From a virus (lineage: Duplodnaviria > Heunggongvirae > Uroviricota > Caudoviricetes), in IMG/VR virus record IMGVR_UViG_3300026512_000004, positions 20,653 through 84,652 of that record: DNA of 64,000 bases; one strand, 5' to 3'. Positions 1,458-20,670 of the stretch are shown one piece after another (positions within the stretch are counted from its first letter, which is position 1; each line of letters begins with the position of its first letter). Both the position numbers and the translations under genes were made by a program. Below the pieces are notes generated by a model that worked only from the letters and a program-made list of their open reading frames with translations, was not told where the DNA came from and did not search any database.

Positions 1458-1754
1458 ATGTCTGAACTCTTCTTAACACGTGAACAGCGTTTTAACATTG
1501 TGCAAAAAACAGCACCTTCGATACTTGACACTTACGGATACCAAATAAGTAACATTGATCGTGAACACAGTGTTATCGTCTTTTTTCGTGAAACACCGGT
1601 AAAATTTGAGACCGATAAAGAACGTGACGACTATGTGACTAAGATATCAAGTCAATTGTATCAAGCTTATTGTAAAGAGGTTGGAGGTAAAGATGCTACG
1701 TTAATATTGAGTGTCGAAGTAGATGGTCCAAAGCTGGAGATTAAAGTGTTATGA
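1458..1754 (+). CDS. hypothetical protein
   Basis: 98-aa ORF, overlaps the downstream start. Confidence 0.4.
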   Translation: MSELFLTREQRFNIVQKTAPSILDTYGYQISNIDREHSVIVFFRETPVKFETDKERDDYVTKISSQLYQAYCKEVGGKDATLILSVEVDGPKLEIKVL

Positions 1755-2413
1755 TCAAAGCGTTTAAAGGAACATCTACAGTTGATTATCCGGATAAGCT
1801 AGCTTCCGTTGTCTTTACAGGTGGATGTAATTGGCGTTGTCCTTTTTGTTACAACATTGATTTAGTTTTACCTGAAAGATTGAAACAATTATCCGATATA
1901 CCTGAAAATGAAATTATTAGTCAACTTAAACGACGCCAAGGATTTATACATGGTGTTGTCATAACTGGTGGTGAACCTACTATTTGGGGTGATCGTTTAA
2001 TCAGTTTTATTAAACGTGTTAGAAAAGAAACGAATTTACTTATCAAACTAGATACAAATGGTAGCAATCCAGATGTCGTACAAGAATTGCTTCCGTACCT
2101 AGATTACATAGCAATTGATTTTAAAACTGGTCCTGAAAAATACCATATACTCGGTGGTAATTTCGAGACAGTACAGAAAACGTTTTCTATTGTCCAAGAT
2201 GTGCCGCATGAAATACGTCTAACTCTTGCTATGATTACTGAAGAAGACCTAGAACAAATGCTACCGTACTTAGAAAATAAAGTAATTGCAGTACAAAAGT
2301 TTTTTCACGGTGTTAATACTTTAGACCCTAATTTTACACCTAGTAAGATATCGCCAGAATACGTTTGTGAACGAGTAGGCCAAGTAGCGAAAAAACTATT
2401 AAGGAGGTTGTAA
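1751..2413 (+). CDS. nrdG: radical SAM protein, anaerobic ribonucleotide reductase activase-like
   Basis: N-terminal GGCNWRCPFCYN (CxxxCxxC followed by YN as in NrdG: GCxHxCxGCYN); glycine-rich VVITGGEPT SAM-binding motif. Confidence 0.55.
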   Translation: MIKAFKGTSTVDYPDKLASVVFTGGCNWRCPFCYNIDLVLPERLKQLSDIPENEIISQLKRRQGFIHGVVITGGEPTIWGDRLISFIKRVRKETNLLIKLDTNGSNPDVVQELLPYLDYIAIDFKTGPEKYHILGGNFETVQKTFSIVQDVPHEIRLTLAMITEEDLEQMLPYLENKVIAVQKFFHGVNTLDPNFTPSKISPEYVCERVGQVAKKLLRRL

Positions 2414-6086: not shown

Positions 6087-6884
6087 ATGTTTGTAGAGAT
6101 TGTCACAGACGAGGATAGACAATTGTTTCGACAATTGGTTGCCAATGTCCCTACAATATTGGAAAATACGGGTGTAAGTGCAAGAAGACAACGTCAACTC
6201 GCAGTAAGGCGGGACGTGCATATTAAACCATATTGTTTCCATCCTGTTGTTTGTACTTGTTGTTTCTTAGTTTCAGATAAGTATCCTAAGCGATGCCTAT
6301 GTGATATAAATGTAGATATTGTATTCACATCATGTAAGTCAGATACTTATTTGTTCGGTATGGTTCATCGGACACCGTTTACTTGTACTTTACTTTTAAA
6401 TAGGTCTAAAAAAGTTTATAAGGATCCTAATTACCTCGATCTAATGAGATATATAAACAAGTCTGCGATAGATACATTATATACGAATGCAGATTCACCT
6501 GTTGTTACATATTCTGTAAATCCGGTTATCACCACATGTCCCAGTGCTCTCTTTCTTAAAACAGTTAGATTAACAAGGTTGATAGATATACTTGAAAAGT
6601 GGACAATCGGCAACACACCAAAAACCGGTTCTTGTGTATCCTTTTGGCGGGAAGATTTTGATGTACCAGACGATTATAAAATACCGGATAACTGGGAATA
6701 TTGGATTAAAGTAGCTGAGAAACTTAAGTTAATTAAGTATACAAGCTTAGATACACTAGCAATGCTTAAGTTACCAAAGTACGGAACAATAGGTACAATA
6801 TGTCACTATGATAATGCAAGAGCGTGGTTCTATTGGATGTCGAAGTTAGGTTTAGATCGTAAAGTCCTGCAAAAAGAATTGTAA
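6087..6884 (+). CDS. hypothetical Cys-rich protein
   Basis: 265 aa; CTCCF...CLCD...C cluster. Confidence 0.4.
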   Translation: MFVEIVTDEDRQLFRQLVANVPTILENTGVSARRQRQLAVRRDVHIKPYCFHPVVCTCCFLVSDKYPKRCLCDINVDIVFTSCKSDTYLFGMVHRTPFTCTLLLNRSKKVYKDPNYLDLMRYINKSAIDTLYTNADSPVVTYSVNPVITTCPSALFLKTVRLTRLIDILEKWTIGNTPKTGSCVSFWREDFDVPDDYKIPDNWEYWIKVAEKLKLIKYTSLDTLAMLKLPKYGTIGTICHYDNARAWFYWMSKLGLDRKVLQKEL

Positions 6885-6916
6885 GACAATAAAACTAGTT
6901 CAAAGGAGGGTTACAA

Positions 6917-7204
6917 ATGGTAAGTGTTAGTTCTAAAGTTACCCGTGCATTAACTAGTAGACTTGGTGATGGTAGAACAGTTGATAAGAATATCTACAAT
7001 TTAGTCCATGGTACACTTAGAGAATTGCTTAATATCAAAAACAAATCAAGCGAAGATATTACTGCAGCCAAAGTAGTAATGTTACGTCATAATGGATTTA
7101 TGCTACACATTACCTGGAAAGATGGAAGTACTTCAAGAATCCCATTTGCAATTGATCTTGAAAGAGAACCCGTATCTTTTAAGTACAAATGGACTAATGC
7201 ATAG
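6917..7204 (+). CDS. hypothetical protein
   Basis: 95 aa; preceded by AAACTAGTTCAAAGGAGGG RBS motif. Confidence 0.45.
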   Translation: MVSVSSKVTRALTSRLGDGRTVDKNIYNLVHGTLRELLNIKNKSSEDITAAKVVMLRHNGFMLHITWKDGSTSRIPFAIDLEREPVSFKYKWTNA

Positions 7205-7334
7205 TTAACTATAGGTAAATCTTAAACTCAAGAAGACACTGTGGTGGCAACATTACACTCGGGGATACTGTTCTTTTTGTTCTTTTCTGTAAACGAGTTT
7301 CTGCACAACATTAAATTCGATAAAGGTGTTCATT

Positions 7335-10300
7335 ATGGAGAGGTTTGTCCGAAAACGCAAAGGAACTATTGTACCATTTGATCGTAATCGTATTCAAACA
7401 GCTATCGAAAAAGCATTTAATGCAACTGGTATTAAAGATGACAGAACCGTAGCGAAGGCAACAGACATCGTAGTTGACAAACTTGAACGCGATTTCTTTA
7501 GGTATGGTTCAATACCTCATGTAGAACAAATACAAGATATCGTAGAAAACACGTTGATGACATTGGGATGTACCGAAGTTGCTAAAGCTTACATACTTTA
7601 CCGTGAGAAAAGAAGACAAATACGCGAGCTGAGAGACGCCGAAGTTGATGCTATTAGTCTAATTGATGATTACTTACAACAAGTAGATTGGCGTGTAAGA
7701 GAGAACTCCAATATGACTTATAGTTTACAAGGATTGAATTTTCATATTTCTTCGTCTATTGTAGCAAGATATTGGTTACACAGGATATACCCAGAACGTG
7801 TTCGTTTGGCACATATAAATGGTGATGTACATGTACACGATCTCAATAGCTTGTCTTGTTATTGTAATGGATGGGATTTATATGACTTACTGCTACGCGG
7901 ATTTGGTGGAGTACACGGTAAGGTAGAAAGTAAACCGCCTAAACATTTTAGAACAGCTCTTGGTCAGCTAGTGAACTTTATGTATACTCTACAAGGTGAA
8001 TGTTATTCGGCTGATACTCAAGTGTTGACAGAAAGCGGCTGGAAATACTTTTGGAATGTGAGCATAAATGACAGAATCTATACGCTTAATCCAGAAACCC
8101 GGCAAATTGAACTCCAGAAACCAATAAAACTTTATGAATTTAATTATGACGGCGAACTCTACCATTTTGAAGGAGATGGATTTGACCTGTTGGTAACTCC
8201 AAACCACAATATGTTGGTTTGTGATGATTCACGTCGTCTTACATTTATCAAAGCTCATGAATTTGGACACGAACACAGTATTTTATGTTGTACAAATGGG
8301 GAAATAGATAAACAGTCTTACAGTAAAGCGTCCATTATTGAAAAAGTACCTTACAAAGGCAAAGTCTATTGTTTAGAAGTGCCTAACCATACACTTTGTG
8401 TTAGAAGAAATGGGAAAATTTGTTGGTGTGGTAATTCTGCCGGAGCGGTTGCCGTCTCCAATATAGATACACTTTTGGCTCCGTTTATCCGTTACGATGG
8501 TCTTAATTACGAGCAAGTTAAACAAGCAATACAAGAATTTATTTTCAACATGAATGTACCTACGCGTGTTGGCTTCCAAACCCCCTTTACTAATACCACT
8601 CATGACTTAGTTCCGCCCCCGACACTTAAGGACAACGCTGTTATCATTGGTGGTGAACCGCAAGATGCAACATACGGTGAATTTCAGGAAGAGATGAATA
8701 TGTTTAATCGTGCATTTTTCGAAGTAATGGCAGAAGGCGATGCAAAGGGCCGTCCATTTTCATTTCCAATACCGACTATCAACATAACTAGAGATTTTGA
8801 CTTTAACAATCCCAATTTAGACCCTTTGTGGGAAGCAACTAGACGTTTTGGTACTCCTTATTGGGCAAATTATGTTAACTCTGATATGAAACCTGAAGAT
8901 GCCAGAAGTATGTGTCTTGCACCTTCAACATGTGTGATGATTAAAGACGATAAAGACGAAATACATGTGGGACGTATTTATGAACTCTATAACAAGTTTG
9001 CTGGATGTAGCATAGAAGTACCTTATAATGGTCAATGGGTTCCTGCGAGATTTGTAAAGGTACCTTACAAACAACCGTTCTATCGTGTTAAGTTGAGTAA
9101 TGGCATCAGTCTTGATTTCACTGCCGATCATAAACATGTCACTATAGATGGAATAAAGTTAACTACTGAATTACAGCCTGGTGATTGTCTCGCATGGTCA
9201 ACGGAAATAACACCGTGGAATGGTCAAGTAGGTGATTTTGTTTATGGTTATAAACTAGCAAAAGAAAAAGGGTGTCTTAAACATTGGTTTAAACTGAGTA
9301 CAGATGCACTAGTTGGATTTCTTACATATATACTTACTGAGAACAATGGAGCTTATGGTACTTATGATAAAAATCAGGCATTACGTGTTGGATATATTGC
9401 GAATGTGTTCGGTTATTCGTATAAAATAGTCAGGATAAAAATACGTAGAGAGAATGGTGAAGAAAAAGACTTCTGGGTAACACGTATCTATAGGAACGAT
9501 AGATATGTCTTTGAAGATAAAGACCGATTTGGCTACGTGAAAATTGTAAGTATAGAGAAAATACGTAATAGATCCGGCAAAGCGTATTGTTTTGAAGTGT
9601 ATACAAATGACCACCTGTTTGAGTTACCTTGTGGACTAATAACACATAATTGTTGTAGATTACGACTTGACAATAGGGAACTGCGCAAGAGAGGAGGCGG
9701 ACTATTTGCATCTGCACCATTAACTGGGTCTATTAACGTTGTGACTATCAACATGCCGAGGATTGCTTATTTGTCTCATAGTGAAAAGGACTTCTTTGAA
9801 CGTCTTGAACAAGTTATGGAAATTGCAAAGTTGTGTCACGAAGTTAAACGCAAAGTTCTAGAAGATTTCACGGAAAAAGGTTTGTATCCGTATTCGTGTG
9901 TTTATCTAGATACTATTAAACAACGTACTGGATCCTACTGGTCAAACCACTTTTCCACTATTGGTATAGTTGGTATGCACGAAGCCTGTTTGAATTTTCT
10001 CGGAAAACCTATTTATGATCCGGAGGCAAAGAAATGGTGTATTAAAGTATTAGAGTTTATGCGTGAAAAAATATTGGAGTTTCAGGAAGAGACCGGCAAT
10101 CTGTACAACTTAGAGGCAACGCCTGCAGAATCCTGTTGTTATAGACTTGCAAAAATAGATAAGAAAAAATATCCTGGAATTATTACGTCTGGAACAGAGG
10201 AAGCACCTTATTATACCAATTCAGTACACTTACCTGTTGGCTATACGGATGATATATTTGAGATATTAGAGCACCAGGATGACCTTATGGTTCTTTTTAC

Positions 10301-10535
10301 CGGAGGATGTGTTGTACATTTGTTCGTAGGTGAGGAGATACCCAGTGTTGAAGTAGTTAAGGAGTTAGTGAAATCAATCTGTTGGAATTTTAGATTGCCA
10401 TACTTCTCTATAACACCTACATTTTCAATATGTCCAATACATGGATATATACCTGGTAAACATGAGTTTTGTCCTTATCCCCATACGGAGAAACAGTTAG
10501 CTAAATGGGGTGTTGAAGTTGAAATCGATGAGTAG
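7335..10535 (+). CDS. nrdD: anaerobic ribonucleoside-triphosphate reductase (class III, NrdD) interrupted by two inteins
   Basis: N-terminal ATP-cone (VRKRKGTIVPFDRNRIQTAIEKA). Motifs shared with the T4/E. coli NrdD sequence as recalled from memory: HVHDL...CYCNGWDL, INMPRIAYLS, EATPAESCCYRLAKID, FTGGCVVHL. Likely start is the ATG at 7335 (SD AAAGGTG); the ORF track starts at GTG 7326. Confidence 0.8.
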   Translation: MERFVRKRKGTIVPFDRNRIQTAIEKAFNATGIKDDRTVAKATDIVVDKLERDFFRYGSIPHVEQIQDIVENTLMTLGCTEVAKAYILYREKRRQIRELRDAEVDAISLIDDYLQQVDWRVRENSNMTYSLQGLNFHISSSIVARYWLHRIYPERVRLAHINGDVHVHDLNSLSCYCNGWDLYDLLLRGFGGVHGKVESKPPKHFRTALGQLVNFMYTLQGECYSADTQVLTESGWKYFWNVSINDRIYTLNPETRQIELQKPIKLYEFNYDGELYHFEGDGFDLLVTPNHNMLVCDDSRRLTFIKAHEFGHEHSILCCTNGEIDKQSYSKASIIEKVPYKGKVYCLEVPNHTLCVRRNGKICWCGNSAGAVAVSNIDTLLAPFIRYDGLNYEQVKQAIQEFIFNMNVPTRVGFQTPFTNTTHDLVPPPTLKDNAVIIGGEPQDATYGEFQEEMNMFNRAFFEVMAEGDAKGRPFSFPIPTINITRDFDFNNPNLDPLWEATRRFGTPYWANYVNSDMKPEDARSMCLAPSTCVMIKDDKDEIHVGRIYELYNKFAGCSIEVPYNGQWVPARFVKVPYKQPFYRVKLSNGISLDFTADHKHVTIDGIKLTTELQPGDCLAWSTEITPWNGQVGDFVYGYKLAKEKGCLKHWFKLSTDALVGFLTYILTENNGAYGTYDKNQALRVGYIANVFGYSYKIVRIKIRRENGEEKDFWVTRIYRNDRYVFEDKDRFGYVKIVSIEKIRNRSGKAYCFEVYTNDHLFELPCGLITHNCCRLRLDNRELRKRGGGLFASAPLTGSINVVTINMPRIAYLSHSEKDFFERLEQVMEIAKLCHEVKRKVLEDFTEKGLYPYSCVYLDTIKQRTGSYWSNHFSTIGIVGMHEACLNFLGKPIYDPEAKKWCIKVLEFMREKILEFQEETGNLYNLEATPAESCCYRLAKIDKKKYPGIITSGTEEAPYYTNSVHLPVGYTDDIFEILEHQDDLMVLFTGGCVVHLFVGEEIPSVEVVKELVKSICWNFRLPYFSITPTFSICPIHGYIPGKHEFCPYPHTEKQLAKWGVEVEIDE
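8001..8435 (+). mobile_element. mini-intein 1 inside nrdD (about 145 aa)
   Basis: Block A CYSADTQVL directly after extein YTLQGE; block B LLVTPNHNML; block F VYCLEVPNHTLCVRRNG; C-terminal boundary ambiguous (...KICWCGN/S at 8433-8435 or ...KICW/C at 8426), no canonical HN. Confidence 0.55.
8913..9650 (+). mobile_element. intein 2 inside nrdD (246 aa)
   Basis: Block A CLAPSTCVMIKDD; block B ISLDFTADHKHVT; blocks F/G YCFEVYTNDHLFELPCGLITHN followed by +1 Cys (CCRLRL); possible degenerate endonuclease insert (LVGFLTYILTENNGAYG). Confidence 0.7.
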
Positions 10536-10600
10536 TTTCATCAGGGAACACTTTGTATAATTGTTTGATACTTGTTTAAAGACAGCGGAGGTATAGATAT

Positions 10601-10759
10601 ATGTCAAAGAGACGTGTCAAATTGATACCATGCGAGGTATACAGTAGAGTGGTTGGATACTACAGACCAGTATCACATTGGAACACTGGTAAACAGCAGG
10701 AATTTAAGGAAAGGAAGACTGTGAAATTAAGCACGTATAAGAAAATCGGAGTAAGCTAG
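10601..10759 (+). CDS. stand-alone glycyl-radical domain peptide of NrdD (52 aa)
   Basis: MSKRRVKLIPCEVYSRVVGYYRPVSHWNTGKQQEFKERKTV matches the NrdD C-terminal RxxGYxxxxxxxNxGKxxExxxR glycyl-radical motif; own SD GCGGAGGT 8 nt upstream; different frame from nrdD, which stops at 10535; below the ORF-track size cut-off. Confidence 0.65.
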   Translation: MSKRRVKLIPCEVYSRVVGYYRPVSHWNTGKQQEFKERKTVKLSTYKKIGVS

Positions 10760-10772
10760 TCATGAAAATCCG

Positions 10773-10792
10773 GGTCCATCTGGGCCCGGGTA
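10773..10792 (+). other. GC-rich hairpin CCGGGTCCATCTGGGCCCGG
   Basis: Imperfect inverted repeat after the nrdD glycyl-radical ORF; related to the hairpin at 3129; no T-run. Confidence 0.3.
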
Positions 10793-10816
10793 TCATCTAG
10801 TTGCGAGGCTAAGCTT

Positions 10817-11815
10817 ATGATTACAGCTCAAGACGTTGCATGGTTTGAAAAGTACCGTCCAAACACCATAGACGATATGTTATTCGAATCCGAGGAACAA
10901 GAACGATTATGCCGTAATATAATAGAACAGGGACCTAAAGGCAACATATTACTGTACGGACCACCTGGTACGGGTAAAACTACTTTTGCACGCATAATTA
11001 TCAGAACCTTTATTAAGTCTGAACATGACATATTTAAATGCTCCAAAAGGTCAGTAACAGAGATTGACGAGGTTATAAAATGGATACCACGTGTACCTTT
11101 TCAATCCCCCTTCAAAATTGTATACATCGAGGAAATTGATAAACTCAGTAGAGAAGCACAGACAACACTTAAAGATGGTGCAATGGAACGTAACATTGTA
11201 CACACAAAGTTTATTGCTACTACTAACTGGGTGGAGAAGTTAGATGTTGCCTTAGTATCTCGTTTTGATACAAAACTACATTTCAGTGGTAAATACGATA
11301 AAGCGAAACTGAAAGTATTCCTTGGGAAGGTTCTACAGAACGAAAATGCTAAATATGATGAACAGAAACTAGAGGAGTTTATCAGTCGTCTTGGTGAAAA
11401 AGTTGACATGCGTTCCTTATTATCCAACTTGCAGATAGCGTATATTAAAGGTAATGGTAGTATCAATTTCGATGAGATACAGGCTGTAACTTGCTTAGAA
11501 GACGATGTAGTTAATTTAATACTTAAGATAGTTAAAAAAGTTAGCGATTTACCCCACAGTGATAGATACAGATGTTGTTTATATCCCATGTCATCTCCAA
11601 TAATGAATGAGTATTCTGAACTGGTAACAAGACTTAGCGAGAATCTGCAATACGAGACTATTTTCAGTGAACTGTATGACAGATTAACTTTGTTCCCATT
11701 GAAAGTCATAGTTGGTAAATACCAAAATGATATGTACAACAAACGACATTTAGACTTGCATCTGTTGGCATGTTTATACGAGTTATTAAGATGTTTGACA
11801 AGTTTGTTCGAATAA
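10817..11815 (+). CDS. clamp-loader AAA+ ATPase (RFC small subunit / T4 gp44-like)
   Basis: LLYGPPGTGKTTFAR Walker A; IVYIEEIDKLSREAQTTL RFC-box-like Walker B/sensor; VSRFD SRC-like motif. Confidence 0.7.
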   Translation: MITAQDVAWFEKYRPNTIDDMLFESEEQERLCRNIIEQGPKGNILLYGPPGTGKTTFARIIIRTFIKSEHDIFKCSKRSVTEIDEVIKWIPRVPFQSPFKIVYIEEIDKLSREAQTTLKDGAMERNIVHTKFIATTNWVEKLDVALVSRFDTKLHFSGKYDKAKLKVFLGKVLQNENAKYDEQKLEEFISRLGEKVDMRSLLSNLQIAYIKGNGSINFDEIQAVTCLEDDVVNLILKIVKKVSDLPHSDRYRCCLYPMSSPIMNEYSELVTRLSENLQYETIFSELYDRLTLFPLKVIVGKYQNDMYNKRHLDLHLLACLYELLRCLTSLFE

Positions 11816-12320: not shown

Positions 12321-14069
12321 ATGGCAATTAAAGTTTTAGAAGCAATACAGCAAATCCAATTACACCCTGCAATGTGGATTGATGCTTACACACCAGAAGG
12401 TGTCATCCGTGAAGTAGTTGAAAACGCTGCCGATGAATTACTTAACCGTTATGGCGATAAGTTATATGTATATATACAGCCTTATGAAGATACTATACGA
12501 GTAACCGTTGCAGACAATGGACGTGGTATTCCTATCACTAAAGTTAAACTACCTAACAGTGATAAGGAAATTGACAGTGTCATAGCTATTTGTTGTCATT
12601 TGTTCTCTGGAGAGAAGTTCGACAAGGACACTTATCAACATTCCACGGGATTACACGGTGTTGGATTAGTTGTTGTAAATGCTTTATCACGTAAAATGAC
12701 TGTACAGGTTAAGAAAGGTGATAAATTATATCAGTACTACTTTGAAAAAGGACGTCTCATTGATAGAATTGTCGTTAGCGCAAAAGAAACTCATCCTTCT
12801 ACTCTAGTTTCTTTTATACCAGATCCCCAATACTTCGGGCAGGTGCCGCAGGAAGTAGATGCTTATGAACGCATCTACGACTTACTTAAACTGTTATCTA
12901 CTTACGGTTTCGATATCAGATTAAATGACCAGCAAATTAAATATACGTTACAGGAATTTTTGGCAGAAAAATTACCGGGCATAGAATTCACTGAATTTAA
13001 GTTTAGTACACGTGAATATACTTGTGAATATTACTTCTCTATCAGTGAAGATCCTGTAGAATATGTACACGGATACGTTAATTTACATAAATGTGGCGGT
13101 GAACACATCAAAGCGTTTAGAAGTGCTGTTGCTTCTGTTTGTAGTAAGATAACTGGATTATCTAGATACATCTTTGAACAGAGAGTACCGTTTGTTGGAT
13201 TTGTTTGGGCAAAAAGACCTAAGTTTGAATCACAGGCTAAAATTAACTTCGTAAACTCAGATTTTCAAAGTACGTTAAACAAAAAGATAGATATACTGAG
13301 TAAAGTAATTGAGAACAATTTCGGAAAAGTATTAGATGCAATAAAGGAGAAATATACCGCATCTAAATTAAGTAGACAAATTAAGAAGACAATCTCCGCT
13401 GATAACCCTTTGAAAGATTGCAGATTCCCTGATAAAGGTATATTGTATATCCTAGAGGGTGAATCTGCAGGTAGCGGATTTGCTCAGGTGAGAAATAAAG
13501 ATTATGAAGCTGTTATGATGTTAGGTGGTAAAGTTACTAACGTTTGGAAAGATCCTGATGCTGTTTTCAAGAAAGGTGGTGAAGTCAAAAAAGAATTAAA
13601 ATGGTTACTGGAGGCAGTAGGATGGACGCCTAAAGGAAAACCGAGATGGAGATATAAAGAGATTAAGATATTAACAGATCCGGATCCAGATGGTCAACAC
13701 ATCACAGTATTAGTTGTTCTGATATTGTACGAATATTGCAGACAACTGATAGAGGAAAAACGTGTTAAAATAATATTGACGCCAATCTATCTAGGCGTTA
13801 AAGGCAAGAATTATGTACCAATTTATCGGGTACAAGACAGAAATAAATTTTCCAAAGTGATAAGAATAAAGGGTCTGGCACAAATACCACCTAAAATACT
13901 GAGGGAAATATTAAATAATCCGTTAGAGTTTACGATTGGAATTCCAGAACATATTGAAGAGTTAAAAGCAATCCTACTTTCAAACGTGAAGACTGCGTTA
14001 TTGGAGAAAGAAACACTGGGGTTTATTTCCTTGTTAGAAAGTATTGTTGGTAACCGTAAAAACAGTTAG
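12321..14069 (+). CDS. type II DNA topoisomerase large subunit (GyrB-like ATPase + Toprim, T4 gp39/gp60-like)
   Basis: GHKL ATPase motifs (GLHGVGLVVVNALS, ADNGRGIP); Toprim EGESAGSG and DPDPDGQHI. Confidence 0.8.
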   Translation: MAIKVLEAIQQIQLHPAMWIDAYTPEGVIREVVENAADELLNRYGDKLYVYIQPYEDTIRVTVADNGRGIPITKVKLPNSDKEIDSVIAICCHLFSGEKFDKDTYQHSTGLHGVGLVVVNALSRKMTVQVKKGDKLYQYYFEKGRLIDRIVVSAKETHPSTLVSFIPDPQYFGQVPQEVDAYERIYDLLKLLSTYGFDIRLNDQQIKYTLQEFLAEKLPGIEFTEFKFSTREYTCEYYFSISEDPVEYVHGYVNLHKCGGEHIKAFRSAVASVCSKITGLSRYIFEQRVPFVGFVWAKRPKFESQAKINFVNSDFQSTLNKKIDILSKVIENNFGKVLDAIKEKYTASKLSRQIKKTISADNPLKDCRFPDKGILYILEGESAGSGFAQVRNKDYEAVMMLGGKVTNVWKDPDAVFKKGGEVKKELKWLLEAVGWTPKGKPRWRYKEIKILTDPDPDGQHITVLVVLILYEYCRQLIEEKRVKIILTPIYLGVKGKNYVPIYRVQDRNKFSKVIRIKGLAQIPPKILREILNNPLEFTIGIPEHIEELKAILLSNVKTALLEKETLGFISLLESIVGNRKNS

Positions 14070-14499: not shown

Positions 14500-14526
14500 G
14501 CAAACGTGTCAAGAAAGGGGGCTTAT

Positions 14527-15216
14527 ATGCAACTTGAGGATGTGGTCCAGTTTATACCTAAAACTATTCAAGGAGAGGGTAAACGTGCTGGACATATTTG
14601 CACACTTTTACGGTTCAAGAAGTGTTTACGTTCCTGTCCATTTTGCGACACCACAGAGTTAATGAAACAGGAATGTTTACCCATCACTATTGACCGGGTT
14701 GCTGATGCAGTCAAGGATACGCATATGTTATTGATAACAGGTGGTGAACCATTAATCTACTTACCACAAATAGCACTATTAGTTCAGTATATTTCAATTT
14801 CACATTCAATTAAGGTTGATTTAGAAACTGCTGGACCGAAGAACAATAAAGCAGGTAAACTCAGTCTAACACAAATACACAAGTATTTACGTATTATAAA
14901 TCAGAACACAGATTTAAATATTGTATTTAGTCCAAAAATATTTAACGATAGAGACCTATGTGAAGCGTGTGATTTTCTACGTATCATTAAAGACTTCAAA
15001 TTTACCGTAAAAGTACTTGTGCCATTTACCAGTGACCATGTGAAGTATTTCTTGTATCATTATAAGACTATGTATTCAGAAGAAAATTTATACTTTATGC
15101 CCATGGGTCAAACGAAAGAAGAACTGGAGAAGAATATACCCGCCACATTAGAAACTGTTTACGAATATGGTGGCAATTTTACGCATAGACTACATTTACT
15201 AACTAATATGCCCTAA
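14527..15216 (+). CDS. queE: 7-carboxy-7-deazaguanine synthase (QueE-like radical SAM)
   Basis: IPKTIQGEGKRAGHICTLLRFKKCLRSCPFCDT closely parallels E. coli QueE FQTLQGEG...GCPVGCAWCDT; ITGGEPL motif; ATG 14527 preferred (SD AAAGGGGG) over GTG 14506. Confidence 0.75.
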   Translation: MQLEDVVQFIPKTIQGEGKRAGHICTLLRFKKCLRSCPFCDTTELMKQECLPITIDRVADAVKDTHMLLITGGEPLIYLPQIALLVQYISISHSIKVDLETAGPKNNKAGKLSLTQIHKYLRIINQNTDLNIVFSPKIFNDRDLCEACDFLRIIKDFKFTVKVLVPFTSDHVKYFLYHYKTMYSEENLYFMPMGQTKEELEKNIPATLETVYEYGGNFTHRLHLLTNMP

Positions 15217-20313: not shown

Positions 20314-20670
20314 ATGCGTAAACTGCTTGGTTTACTGACACTGGGATTCACAATGTTCGCATTTACAGCATGTGGTGGTGATCTTTGTCACAACAAACAG
20401 GTACAAGAAAAGGCAAAAGAGACATATGCTATTTATAGCAAAGAATTATTGTCTGCACTGGGGTATGATGTTTACACGGTTGATCAGATCATAGACATGT
20501 TGGACATTACTAAAGTCGTGAAAAGCAAAAAAGTTGGTAAAAATGAACAAATTTGCACTGTCGTTATTGAAGATGTAAGTGGTAGAAAAGCGAATTATAG
20601 TTTTAGAGTTACGGATAGAAACGGTCACTATAAAATAGACATTTTGGACATTGTGCCAATTGAGAAATAA
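20314..20670 (+). CDS. lipoprotein (candidate superinfection-exclusion/surface protein)
   Basis: MRKLLGLLTLGFTMFAFTACGG signal peptide + lipobox; SD AAAGGAGGT 5 nt upstream of ATG 20314. Confidence 0.55.
   Translation: MRKLLGLLTLGFTMFAFTACGGDLCHNKQVQEKAKETYAIYSKELLSALGYDVYTVDQIIDMLDITKVVKSKKVGKNEQICTVVIEDVSGRKANYSFRVTDRNGHYKIDILDIVPIEK

Follow-up and report, generated by a model that had tools for sequence, protein, structure and literature searches.

Does a phage gene for an anaerobic ribonucleotide reductase (RNR) still yield its enzyme when it is interrupted by two inteins, one of which lacks the usual histidine at its C-terminal junction? This question is raised by a 64,000-nucleotide (nt) stretch of viral DNA (IMG/VR record IMGVR_UViG_3300026512_000004, positions 20,653 to 84,652), hereafter the window, numbered from its first letter. 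The window belongs to a tailed phage, and its PHROG matches include tail sheath, tail fibre, DNA polymerase and helicase. An initial annotation, made from the sequence without database searches, had placed two inteins in its nrdD gene and wondered whether both splice. Judging from comparison with homologs, both inteins most likely splice. The gene very probably encodes a functional phage class III RNR, made as a precursor of 1066 amino acids (aa) with two cis-splicing inteins, and the mature NrdD would act together with a separate glycyl-radical peptide and NrdG. The parts of the gene are as follows.

7335-10535, plus strand: nrdD precursor open reading frame (ORF), class III RNR catalytic subunit with two inteins, 1066 aa plus stop (ORF list, Pfam, NCBIfam)
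7335-8000, plus strand: extein segment 1, residues 1-222, ending in an invariant QGE (alignment A1; Q220, G221 and E222 invariant)
7344-7616, plus strand: ATP-cone allosteric domain of the N-extein (Pfam PF03477)
8001-8435, plus strand: intein 1, a 145-aa mini-intein without endonuclease domain (alignments, PDB sequence matches, AlphaFold2 (AF2) model, Foldseek)
8436-8912, plus strand: extein segment 2, 159 aa, from the +1 Ser (8436-8438) to RSM (alignment A1, gap-free alignment of the spliced product)
8913-9650, plus strand: intein 2, 246 aa, with canonical termini; Cys1, Thr70 and His73 (block B), Cys226 (F:4), His234 (F:13), His245-Asn246 (Pfam, TIGR01445, alignment A3, AF2 and Foldseek)
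9651-10532, plus strand: extein segment 3, 294 aa, from the +1 Cys of the finger-loop motif CCRLRL to ...CPYPHTEKQLAKWGVEVEIDE, without glycyl-radical motif (alignments)

In the ORF list of the window, the gene is a single intact plus-strand ORF that runs from a GTG at 7326 to 10535. Translation is likely to start at the ATG at 7335, where the predicted N-terminus MERFVRKR resembles the MEPLVRKR of homologs and AAAGG lies 9 nt 5' of the start codon. The assignment to nrdD was borne out by profile searches. The precursor matches Pfam NRDD with E=4.9e-162, in three separate stretches, which signals two insertions. It also matches the Pfam ATP-cone (PF03477, E=2.5e-23) over residues 7-97 of the 1069-aa reading frame. 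Scores of 955.8 bits against NCBIfam PRK08270 ('ribonucleoside triphosphate reductase', cutoff 548) and of 473.7 bits against TIGR02487 NrdD (cutoff 326) place the protein within the NrdD family.

The two insertions were delimited by aligning the window NrdD with 12 homologs (alignment A1), and the 120 best NrdD homologs were used as a census. All motif positions proposed initially were recovered. Around intein 1, YTLQGE ends at 8000, CYSADTQVL starts at 8001, TPNH occupies 8196-8207, VYCLEV 8364-8381 and KICWCGN 8415-8435, and SAGAVAVSNID starts at 8436. Intein 2 opens with CLAPSTCVM at 8913 and closes with GLITHN at 9650, and CCRLRL follows from 9651. Intein-free homologs of about 690 aa (P0045 from Thermodesulfatator indicus, P0027 and P0021), which are 70-72% identical to the window NrdD in A1, read without interruption through YTLQGE-[A/S]AGAQAFSN and DARSM-CCRLRLD, the first motif being QGE[A/S/V]AGA across intein-free homologs. 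At these two points the window NrdD has 145 extra residues between QGE and SAGA (8001-8435) and 246 between RSM and CCRL (8913-9650). Intein 1, first given as 142-145 aa, is therefore exactly 145 aa long, and the 246 aa proposed for intein 2 are exact. When both segments are deleted, the product has 675 aa, close to the 680 or so expected, and 673-674 of its residues align with zero gaps and 71-72% identity to P0021, P0026 and P0027. Hence, the segments are insertions and their junctions are exact.

That the inserted segments might instead be native NrdD domains is, on these data, virtually impossible. In the census, 61 close homologs have only 670-720 aa; aligned with the spliced product, the best of these show no gaps, hence they contain neither segment. 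In addition, a HINT fold and matches to intein profiles or structures were found for both segments, as described below. Alignment A1, the Foldseek comparison and the spliced-product alignment together refute the native-domain reading, which the initial annotation had named as what would speak against it.

Both inteins sit in conserved surroundings. In A1, the site of intein 1 is flanked by invariant Q220, G221 and E222 on one side and A369, G370 and A371 on the other, and that of intein 2 by S525 and M526 and by C773, C774, R775 and L776. The RSM/CCRL motif is the double-cysteine finger loop of class III RNRs (PMC9669993). Each intein is thus lodged inside an invariant motif of the active-site region, QGE/SAGA for intein 1 and the RSM/CCRL finger loop for intein 2. 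The guanine-cytosine content of the inteins (0.36) is close to that of the exteins (0.38-0.41) and of the window (0.369). There is no sign of recent acquisition, which fits inteins that lost or are losing their endonucleases.

A megablast of the nrdD gene against 50,697 deposited phage records gave no match, nor did a peptide-pattern scan of IMG/VR with the window NrdD as single query; the same scan with alignment A1 did give loci. No close relative was therefore at hand in which to look for intein-free alleles or homing polymorphism. A group I intron in or after the gene was also considered, T4 nrdD being a precedent for such an intron in a phage nrdD. It was rejected: an Rfam search of 6800-11000 at E≤0.1 found no RNA family, group I introns included, and the 65-nt spacer that precedes the glycyl-radical ORF is too short and carries a ribosome-binding site.

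The key residues of intein 1 are Cys1 (8001-8003), Thr66 and His69 of the block B TxxH motif (8196-8207), Cys124 at block F:4 (8370-8372), His130 (8388-8390) and Gly144-Asn145 (8430-8435), followed by Ser+1. Cys141 and Cys143 are present as well. The segment shows the features expected of a class 1 intein, namely a HINT fold, Cys1, a TxxH motif (T66-P-N-H69), Asn145 followed by Ser (8433-8438) and an exact in-frame insertion. The penultimate His (G:6), which is typical but not obligatory, is indeed absent, the junction being Gly144-Asn145/Ser. Among PDB sequences, intein 1 matches 6zgq, the AceL NrdHF-1-1 intein (E=2.5e-9 and 3.4e-11). Further matches are the Pho RadA intein and an intein-like domain from a bacterium. 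Fourteen family members were used to build an AF2 model, which is all-beta and has a pLDDT (predicted local distance difference test) of 96.4 and a pTM (predicted template modelling score) of 0.90. When this model was compared with the PDB by Foldseek, all 50 matches listed were inteins or other HINT-superfamily domains, the best being again 6zgq (TM 0.89, root-mean-square deviation 1.8 Å).

Is the unusual end of intein 1 a lesion? The census argues otherwise. An intein occupies the same position (site b) in 44 of the best 120 NrdD homologs. The last four residues are WCGN in 38 of the 44, WSGN in 5 and WGGN in 1, and the following residue is Ser in 30 and Cys in 14. Twelve of the 44 are mini-inteins of 141-183 aa, and 32 keep a LAGLIDADG domain (344-402 aa). 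Paralogs of intein 1 are found at two further NrdD sites (PLTG/CYSSDT...WSGN/SIGV and GFQ/CLSEDT...ITGN/T). In an alignment of 14 mini-inteins (A2), residues C1, S3, D5, T6, L9, T10, G13, W14, K15, L64, H69, I113, Y118, G120, C124, N129, R136, G144 and N145 are invariant, and intein 1 of the window retains every one of them. At site-b columns that are at least 90% conserved, it deviates at one position only, from Ala to Ile. Sequence comparison thus gives no sign of decay.

The lineage reaches far beyond nrdD. A word-index search with intein 1 alone returned 4 word-sharing candidates and no homologs, a limit of so short a query, and an exhaustive profile search was used instead. Searched against 1.84 billion cluster representatives, the A2 profile matched 16,618 of them at E≤1e-3 and 10,360 at E≤1e-10. 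Residues were counted in the proteins matched by the profile, among the matches listed. All 382 family copies counted at position 1 have Cys there. Block B has His at B:10 in 401 of 407 and a nearly invariant Thr/Ser. Position F:4 is Cys in 351 of 393 (89%), with Asp in 19 and Ser in 19. The penultimate residue is Gly in 349 of 364, and all 355 copies counted at the last position have Asn. In 354 of 355, this Asn is followed at +1 by Ser (239), Thr (68) or Cys (47). Host proteins include NrdD, group 1 glycosyltransferases and a Mu-type portal protein. By these residues, intein 1 is a member of a very large lineage that is marked by Cys1, a TxxH block B, Cys at F:4 and a Gly-Asn end followed by Ser, Thr or Cys. 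The family-wide Gly-Asn end hence reads as a lineage signature under purifying selection and not as a lesion. Block G of intein 1, initially called non-canonical, deserves this name in comparison with typical inteins, but within its own lineage it is the norm. The best profile matches (P0121-P0267) include proteins of up to 3,693 aa with up to four complete intein copies and up to ten matched stretches.

Intein 2 is canonical, as had been proposed. It scores 52 bits against Pfam Intein_splicing (PF14890) in the whole protein and 37 bits alone (cutoff 35.8; E=3.6e-9), and 28.8 bits against TIGR01445 (cutoff 24.5; E=1.9e-6). It has Cys1, a block B T70-A-D-H73 and an H245-N246/Cys junction, as a class 1 intein should. 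Its block F:4 is Cys226 (9588-9590, in AYCFEV) instead of Asp, and a second active-site Cys besides Cys1 is a feature of both inteins. The AF2 model (pLDDT 75) shows an alpha/beta insert in a single module. In Foldseek comparisons the model resembles mini-inteins as well as the endonuclease-bearing PI-PfuI (TMq 0.61), TliVMA and PI-SceI. The insert contains the following feature.

9225-9497, plus strand: remnant half of a LAGLIDADG homing-endonuclease domain, intein 2 residues about 105-195, including LVGFLTYILTENNG (A3 deletion, AF2 model)

The initial annotation had pointed to LVGFLTYILTENNG as LAGLIDADG-like. When intein 2 was aligned with eight inteins (318-345 aa) that occupy this site in other NrdDs (alignment A3), this segment fell on the second LAGLIDADG motif of the homologs (EFRxGxLxGxxxTDG). 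In contrast with these longer homologs, intein 2 lacks about 80 aa that comprise the first LAGLIDADG helix (LGxxLGxYxGxG) and the core that follows it. The segment reads as part of an endonuclease remnant and not of an intact enzyme, as a LAGLIDADG endonuclease is made of two such helices and two alpha-beta-beta-alpha-beta-beta-alpha half-domains in one chain. LAGLIDADG Pfam profiles (PF14528 or other) found no match in intein 2 at E≤10, whereas the homologs do carry PF14528. A phmmer search with the insert (residues 95-205) against all fetched proteins recovered only itself, the remnant being too diverged for single-sequence detection. Altogether, the alignment suggests that intein 2 keeps half a homing endonuclease; it would still splice, but its mobility is probably lost.

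Extein segment 3 ends without the glycyl-radical motif that a class III RNR needs. The motif is provided by a separate small gene, and the activase is also encoded in the window.

10587-10591, plus strand: Shine-Dalgarno-like GGAGG, 9 nt 5' of the ATG of the small ORF (sequence read directly)
10601-10759, plus strand: separate 52-aa ORF, the NrdD glycyl-radical domain (CEVYSRVVGYYRPV...) (Pfam NRDD, NCBIfam)
1751-2413, plus strand: nrdG, radical-SAM activase of anaerobic RNR, with CNWRCPFC (TIGR02495 NrdG2, 157 bits, cutoff 131.15; motif)

The 52-aa ORF begins 65 nt after the nrdD stop and encodes ...CEVYSRVVGYYRPVSHWNTGKQQEFKERK.... It matches positions 533-560 of the 562 of Pfam NRDD, i.e., the last 28 (E=3.8e-10, 39.5 bits, cutoff 26.2), as well as the C-termini of three NCBIfam NrdD models. 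The glycyl-radical signature RxxGY is thus found on this ORF (SRVVGYYRP) and not on the NrdD body. The same layout is seen in Thermodesulfatator indicus, where an ORF of 58 aa that matches NRDD begins 15 nt downstream of the gene for a 690-aa NrdD. The counterpart listed with window positions 10587-10759 lies at 4589-4765 of L001. In the census, a C-terminal RxxGY[Y/L]R is absent from 93 of the best 120 homologs, 63 of which have a CPYPH signature, and the remaining 27 carry a fused glycyl-radical domain with CPKC...C. In RNR papers, covered by a literature search that was not exhaustive, we met no account of a class III RNR split naturally in this way. nrdG lies 5 kb upstream of nrdD and is not adjacent to it. 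Neither this gene nor the glycyl-radical ORF had been pointed out in the initial annotation, and the same holds for the Cys at F:4 of both inteins and for the relationship of intein 1 to the class 3 AceL NrdHF intein. The expected NrdD hallmarks are therefore present, with the glycyl-radical motif on its own ORF, and the locus should be annotated as a single nrdD that contains two inteins and, apart from it, a glycyl-radical ORF; neither 'fusion' nor 'pseudogene' would be appropriate.

These features bear on splicing. The precursor ORF is intact over 3.2 kb, and the glycyl-radical ORF and nrdG are retained, which suggests that the enzyme is in use; both inteins must then splice. The doubt over intein 1 is largely answered by comparison, since its Gly-Asn end is family-wide and has experimental precedents. 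The class 1 intein in the RDF protein (gp51) of mycobacteriophage Bethlehem is such a precedent: it has a penultimate Gly, like intein 1, and splices to completion, and changing this Gly to His slows splicing so that precursor accumulates (Kelley et al. 2016, PMC5050341). It differs from intein 1 in its host protein and in having an active endonuclease. About 5% of functional inteins have a residue other than His at G:6 (PMC4031507).

A second precedent is the closest characterised relative of intein 1, AceL NrdHF-1-1 (PDB 6zgq), an atypical class 3 intein that is naturally split and comes from a phage-like contig of an Antarctic lake (Hoffmann et al. 2020, PMC7891396). It splices nearly completely with a half-time of about 3.8 min, the G145H change abolishes its activity, and Arg69 partly replaces the missing His (PMC7891396). 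This 146-aa intein has Ala1, Ser65 and His68, Arg69, Met70 (B:12), Cys124, Thr144 and Gly145-Asn146 followed by Ser+1, with Glu at -1 and no His at F:13 or G:6 (PMC7891396). Intein 1 shares with it the HINT fold, a length of about 145 aa, Glu-1, Ser+1, an xPNH block B, Met at B:12, Cys124 at F:4, the Gly-Asn end and, as host, an RNR gene of a probable phage. Ala1, proven class 3 chemistry, the split into two genes, Thr at G:5, Arg at B:11, the lack of an F:13 His and a class Ib beta-subunit fusion (NrdHF) as host are peculiar to AceL NrdHF. In contrast, intein 1 is in one piece and hosted by NrdD, and it has Cys1, His130, Cys at G:5 and Asn at B:11. The two are only 23% identical.

By the class 1 route, Cys1 of intein 1 would perform an N-S acyl shift at Glu-1, and the acyl group would pass to Ser+1. 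Asn145 would then cyclise without a penultimate His, possibly helped by His130 of block F and/or the residue at B:11, as in the characterised relative. An O-N shift would finally restore QGE-SAGA. Intein 2 would splice as a canonical intein with Cys1 and a His-Asn/Cys end, and the mature 675-aa NrdD would work with NrdG, the activase encoded by the phage, and with the 52-aa glycyl-radical peptide, which would be translated separately. The class 1 route is favoured for intein 1 because Cys1 is invariant while F:4 is Asp, the usual class 1 residue, or Ser in about 10% of copies.

The resemblance to AceL NrdHF suggests another route, class 3-like or dual, in which Cys124 at F:4 attacks the N-scissile bond and yields an internal branched thioester, Cys1 being redundant or an alternative nucleophile. 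This is quite unlikely. The best structure and sequence match of intein 1 is a class 3 intein (TM 0.89; E=2.5e-9), the two have Met at B:12, Cys124 at F:4, Gly-Asn/Ser and Glu-1 in common, and F:4 is Cys in 89% of the family copies among the matches listed. However, the counts at Cys1 (382 of 382) and F:4 (Asp or Ser in about 10%) describe an obligate Cys1 and a replaceable F:4 residue, whereas the working definition of class 3 is the lack of Cys at position 1 (PMC7891396). Moreover, G:5 is Cys or Ser in the lineage and not the class 3 Thr, and Cys is common at F:4 of inteins in general, where it comes second after Asp (PMC4031507). A formal filing of intein 1 as class 3 was rejected. Besides the invariant Cys1, the W and T of the WCT triplet are replaced by Met71 at B:12 and Cys143 at G:5; the Cys of the triplet is present, Cys124 being invariant in the 14 mini-inteins.

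The cysteines of the two inteins also suggest that splicing of one or both is gated by redox state. A disulfide between Cys1 and Cys at F:4 would form under oxidising conditions, and NrdD would mature only in a reducing or anoxic cell; this would add to class 1 splicing. Such a gate is unlikely. Both inteins have Cys1 and Cys at F:4, with Cys141 and Cys143 in addition in intein 1. In AceL NrdHF, the F:4 thiol is 3.0 Å from the N-scissile carbonyl (PMC7891396), and disulfides of catalytic cysteines make other inteins redox-sensitive (PMC6195587; PMC4031507 and references cited there). On the other hand, the same Cys1/Cys-F:4 family has members in glycosyltransferases and portal proteins, hosts that are unconnected with oxygen. 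A likeness is seen in DnaB of M. smegmatis, where two inteins, one of them a mini-intein and both using Cys chemistry, interrupt one essential protein of nucleic-acid metabolism (Kelley et al. 2018, PMC6195587). One of the DnaB inteins belongs to class 3 and is redox-regulated in experiments, whereas both window inteins start with Cys and are known from their sequence.

The two ideas meet in the possibility that the intein 1 lineage, which bears Cys1, is sister to the atypical class 3 intein AceL NrdHF, and that intein 1 can use either nucleophile or has a disulfide switch in its Cys1/Cys124 pair. We regard this as unlikely. If true, the oxygen-sensitive NrdD would be kept from maturing by the switch until the surroundings turn reducing. 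As the Cys1/Cys-F:4/Gly-Asn lineage comprises more than 10,000 clusters with one characterised relative, which is class 3, it is a natural place to test the origin of class 3. The lineage may also supply compact mini-inteins (145 aa, Ser+1) for use in protein engineering.

It is very unlikely that intein 1 is a decaying, splicing-dead insertion and this nrdD copy non-functional. The missing penultimate His, the score below the Pfam gathering threshold and the lack of an endonuclease to maintain intein 1 would agree with it. But all family invariants are kept with one conservative departure, the Gly-Asn terminus is the family norm, the ORF is intact and nrdG and the glycyl-radical ORF are retained. 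Furthermore, selection would act strongly against a dead intein at this site, which is part of an invariant motif.

Some points weigh against splicing of both inteins by the class 1 route. The support for splicing is wholly comparative. The intein profile search called for initially settled intein 2, above the Pfam and TIGR01445 cutoffs, but intein 1 alone reached 26.0 bits, below the gathering score of 35.8, and was identified by the 6zgq match and the model. Its class 1 assignment would rest on the invariance of Cys1, its nearest characterised relative being class 3. Block B:11 of intein 1 is Asn, found in 53 of about 400 family copies listed, and not the Arg that assists Asn cyclisation in AceL NrdHF, so that its C-terminal chemistry may differ from that of AceL NrdHF. 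The proposed half endonuclease of intein 2 draws mainly on the alignment, the model being only moderately confident (pLDDT 75). Class 1 splicing of both inteins nevertheless remains our preferred reading.

How common are such genes? RNR inteins, multi-intein proteins, inteins with a penultimate Gly and Cys at F:4 are already documented, and little here is scientifically new. The NrdD subfamily itself is an intein hot spot: in the best 120 homologs, inteins occupy at least seven different sites, and a single protein can carry as many as four. Site-b inteins of NrdDs from uncultured bacteria, archaea and viruses (P0003, P0025, P0034, P0056; L005) have the same insertion point, QGE/[S/C]AGA, the same blocks and a W[C/S]GN end, and are known from sequence alone. 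They are 44-61% identical to intein 1, which makes the window copy distinct (61% or less), and unlike intein 1 most of them (32 of 44) keep a LAGLIDADG endonuclease. A site-b mini-intein is accompanied by a second intein in P0003, P0004, P0018 and P0020; in P0003, P0004 and P0018 a second intein lies at RSM/CCRL, like in the window NrdD. The best 80 loci of the IMG/VR scan with A1 gave 78 viral NrdD ORFs of this subfamily. Large insertions are absent from 60 of these ORFs, and their number is one in 14, two in 3 and three in 1. A phage nrdD with two inteins is thus uncommon but not unique (4 of 78 with two or more). One viral contig (L005) has a site-b mini-intein that ends in WCGN.

Self-splicing elements have been met before in phage nrdD, in Clostridium phage c-st, Lactococcus phage 949 and Jug phages (PMC3653736, PMC12880540). 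These cases are single putative inteins, introns or fragmented genes, whereas the window has two in-frame inteins in one intact ORF. Inteins with unusual ends were noticed in homologs at a GPY/.../CVGW site (P0007, P0016, P0089, P0115) and at the RSM/.../CCRL site (P0046, P0082, P0083). One type seemingly starts with Thr (TYYGKE...MWNHN/C), and another starts with Ala, ends with Gln (AILG...ITHQ/C) and has Asn at F:4. From their sequences, these may be non-class-1 or otherwise atypical inteins.

In the neighbourhood of nrdD, two type II topoisomerase subunits are encoded 6 kb apart on the plus strand, GyrA/ParC-like (PF00521, 4791-6065) and GyrB-like with HATPase and Toprim domains (12321-14069). 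The interval contains nrdD and the glycyl-radical ORF as well as a gene (10817-11815) for a clamp-loader-like AAA+ protein. Further on, a QueE-like radical-SAM protein (CLRSCPFC; 14506-15216, plus strand) matches TIGR03963 with E=1.1e-14, below the cutoff, and by its sequence hints at a 7-deazaguanine DNA-modification pathway in the phage. Promoter and terminator scans gave counts at or below shuffled expectation. Finally, a GC-rich hairpin with one mismatch (CCGGGTCC-ATCT-GGGCCCGG; 10770-10789, plus strand) lies 11 nt 3' of the glycyl-radical ORF and has no T-tract. It was not called by the terminator scan and may be a transcript-end or processing signal before the gene at 10817.

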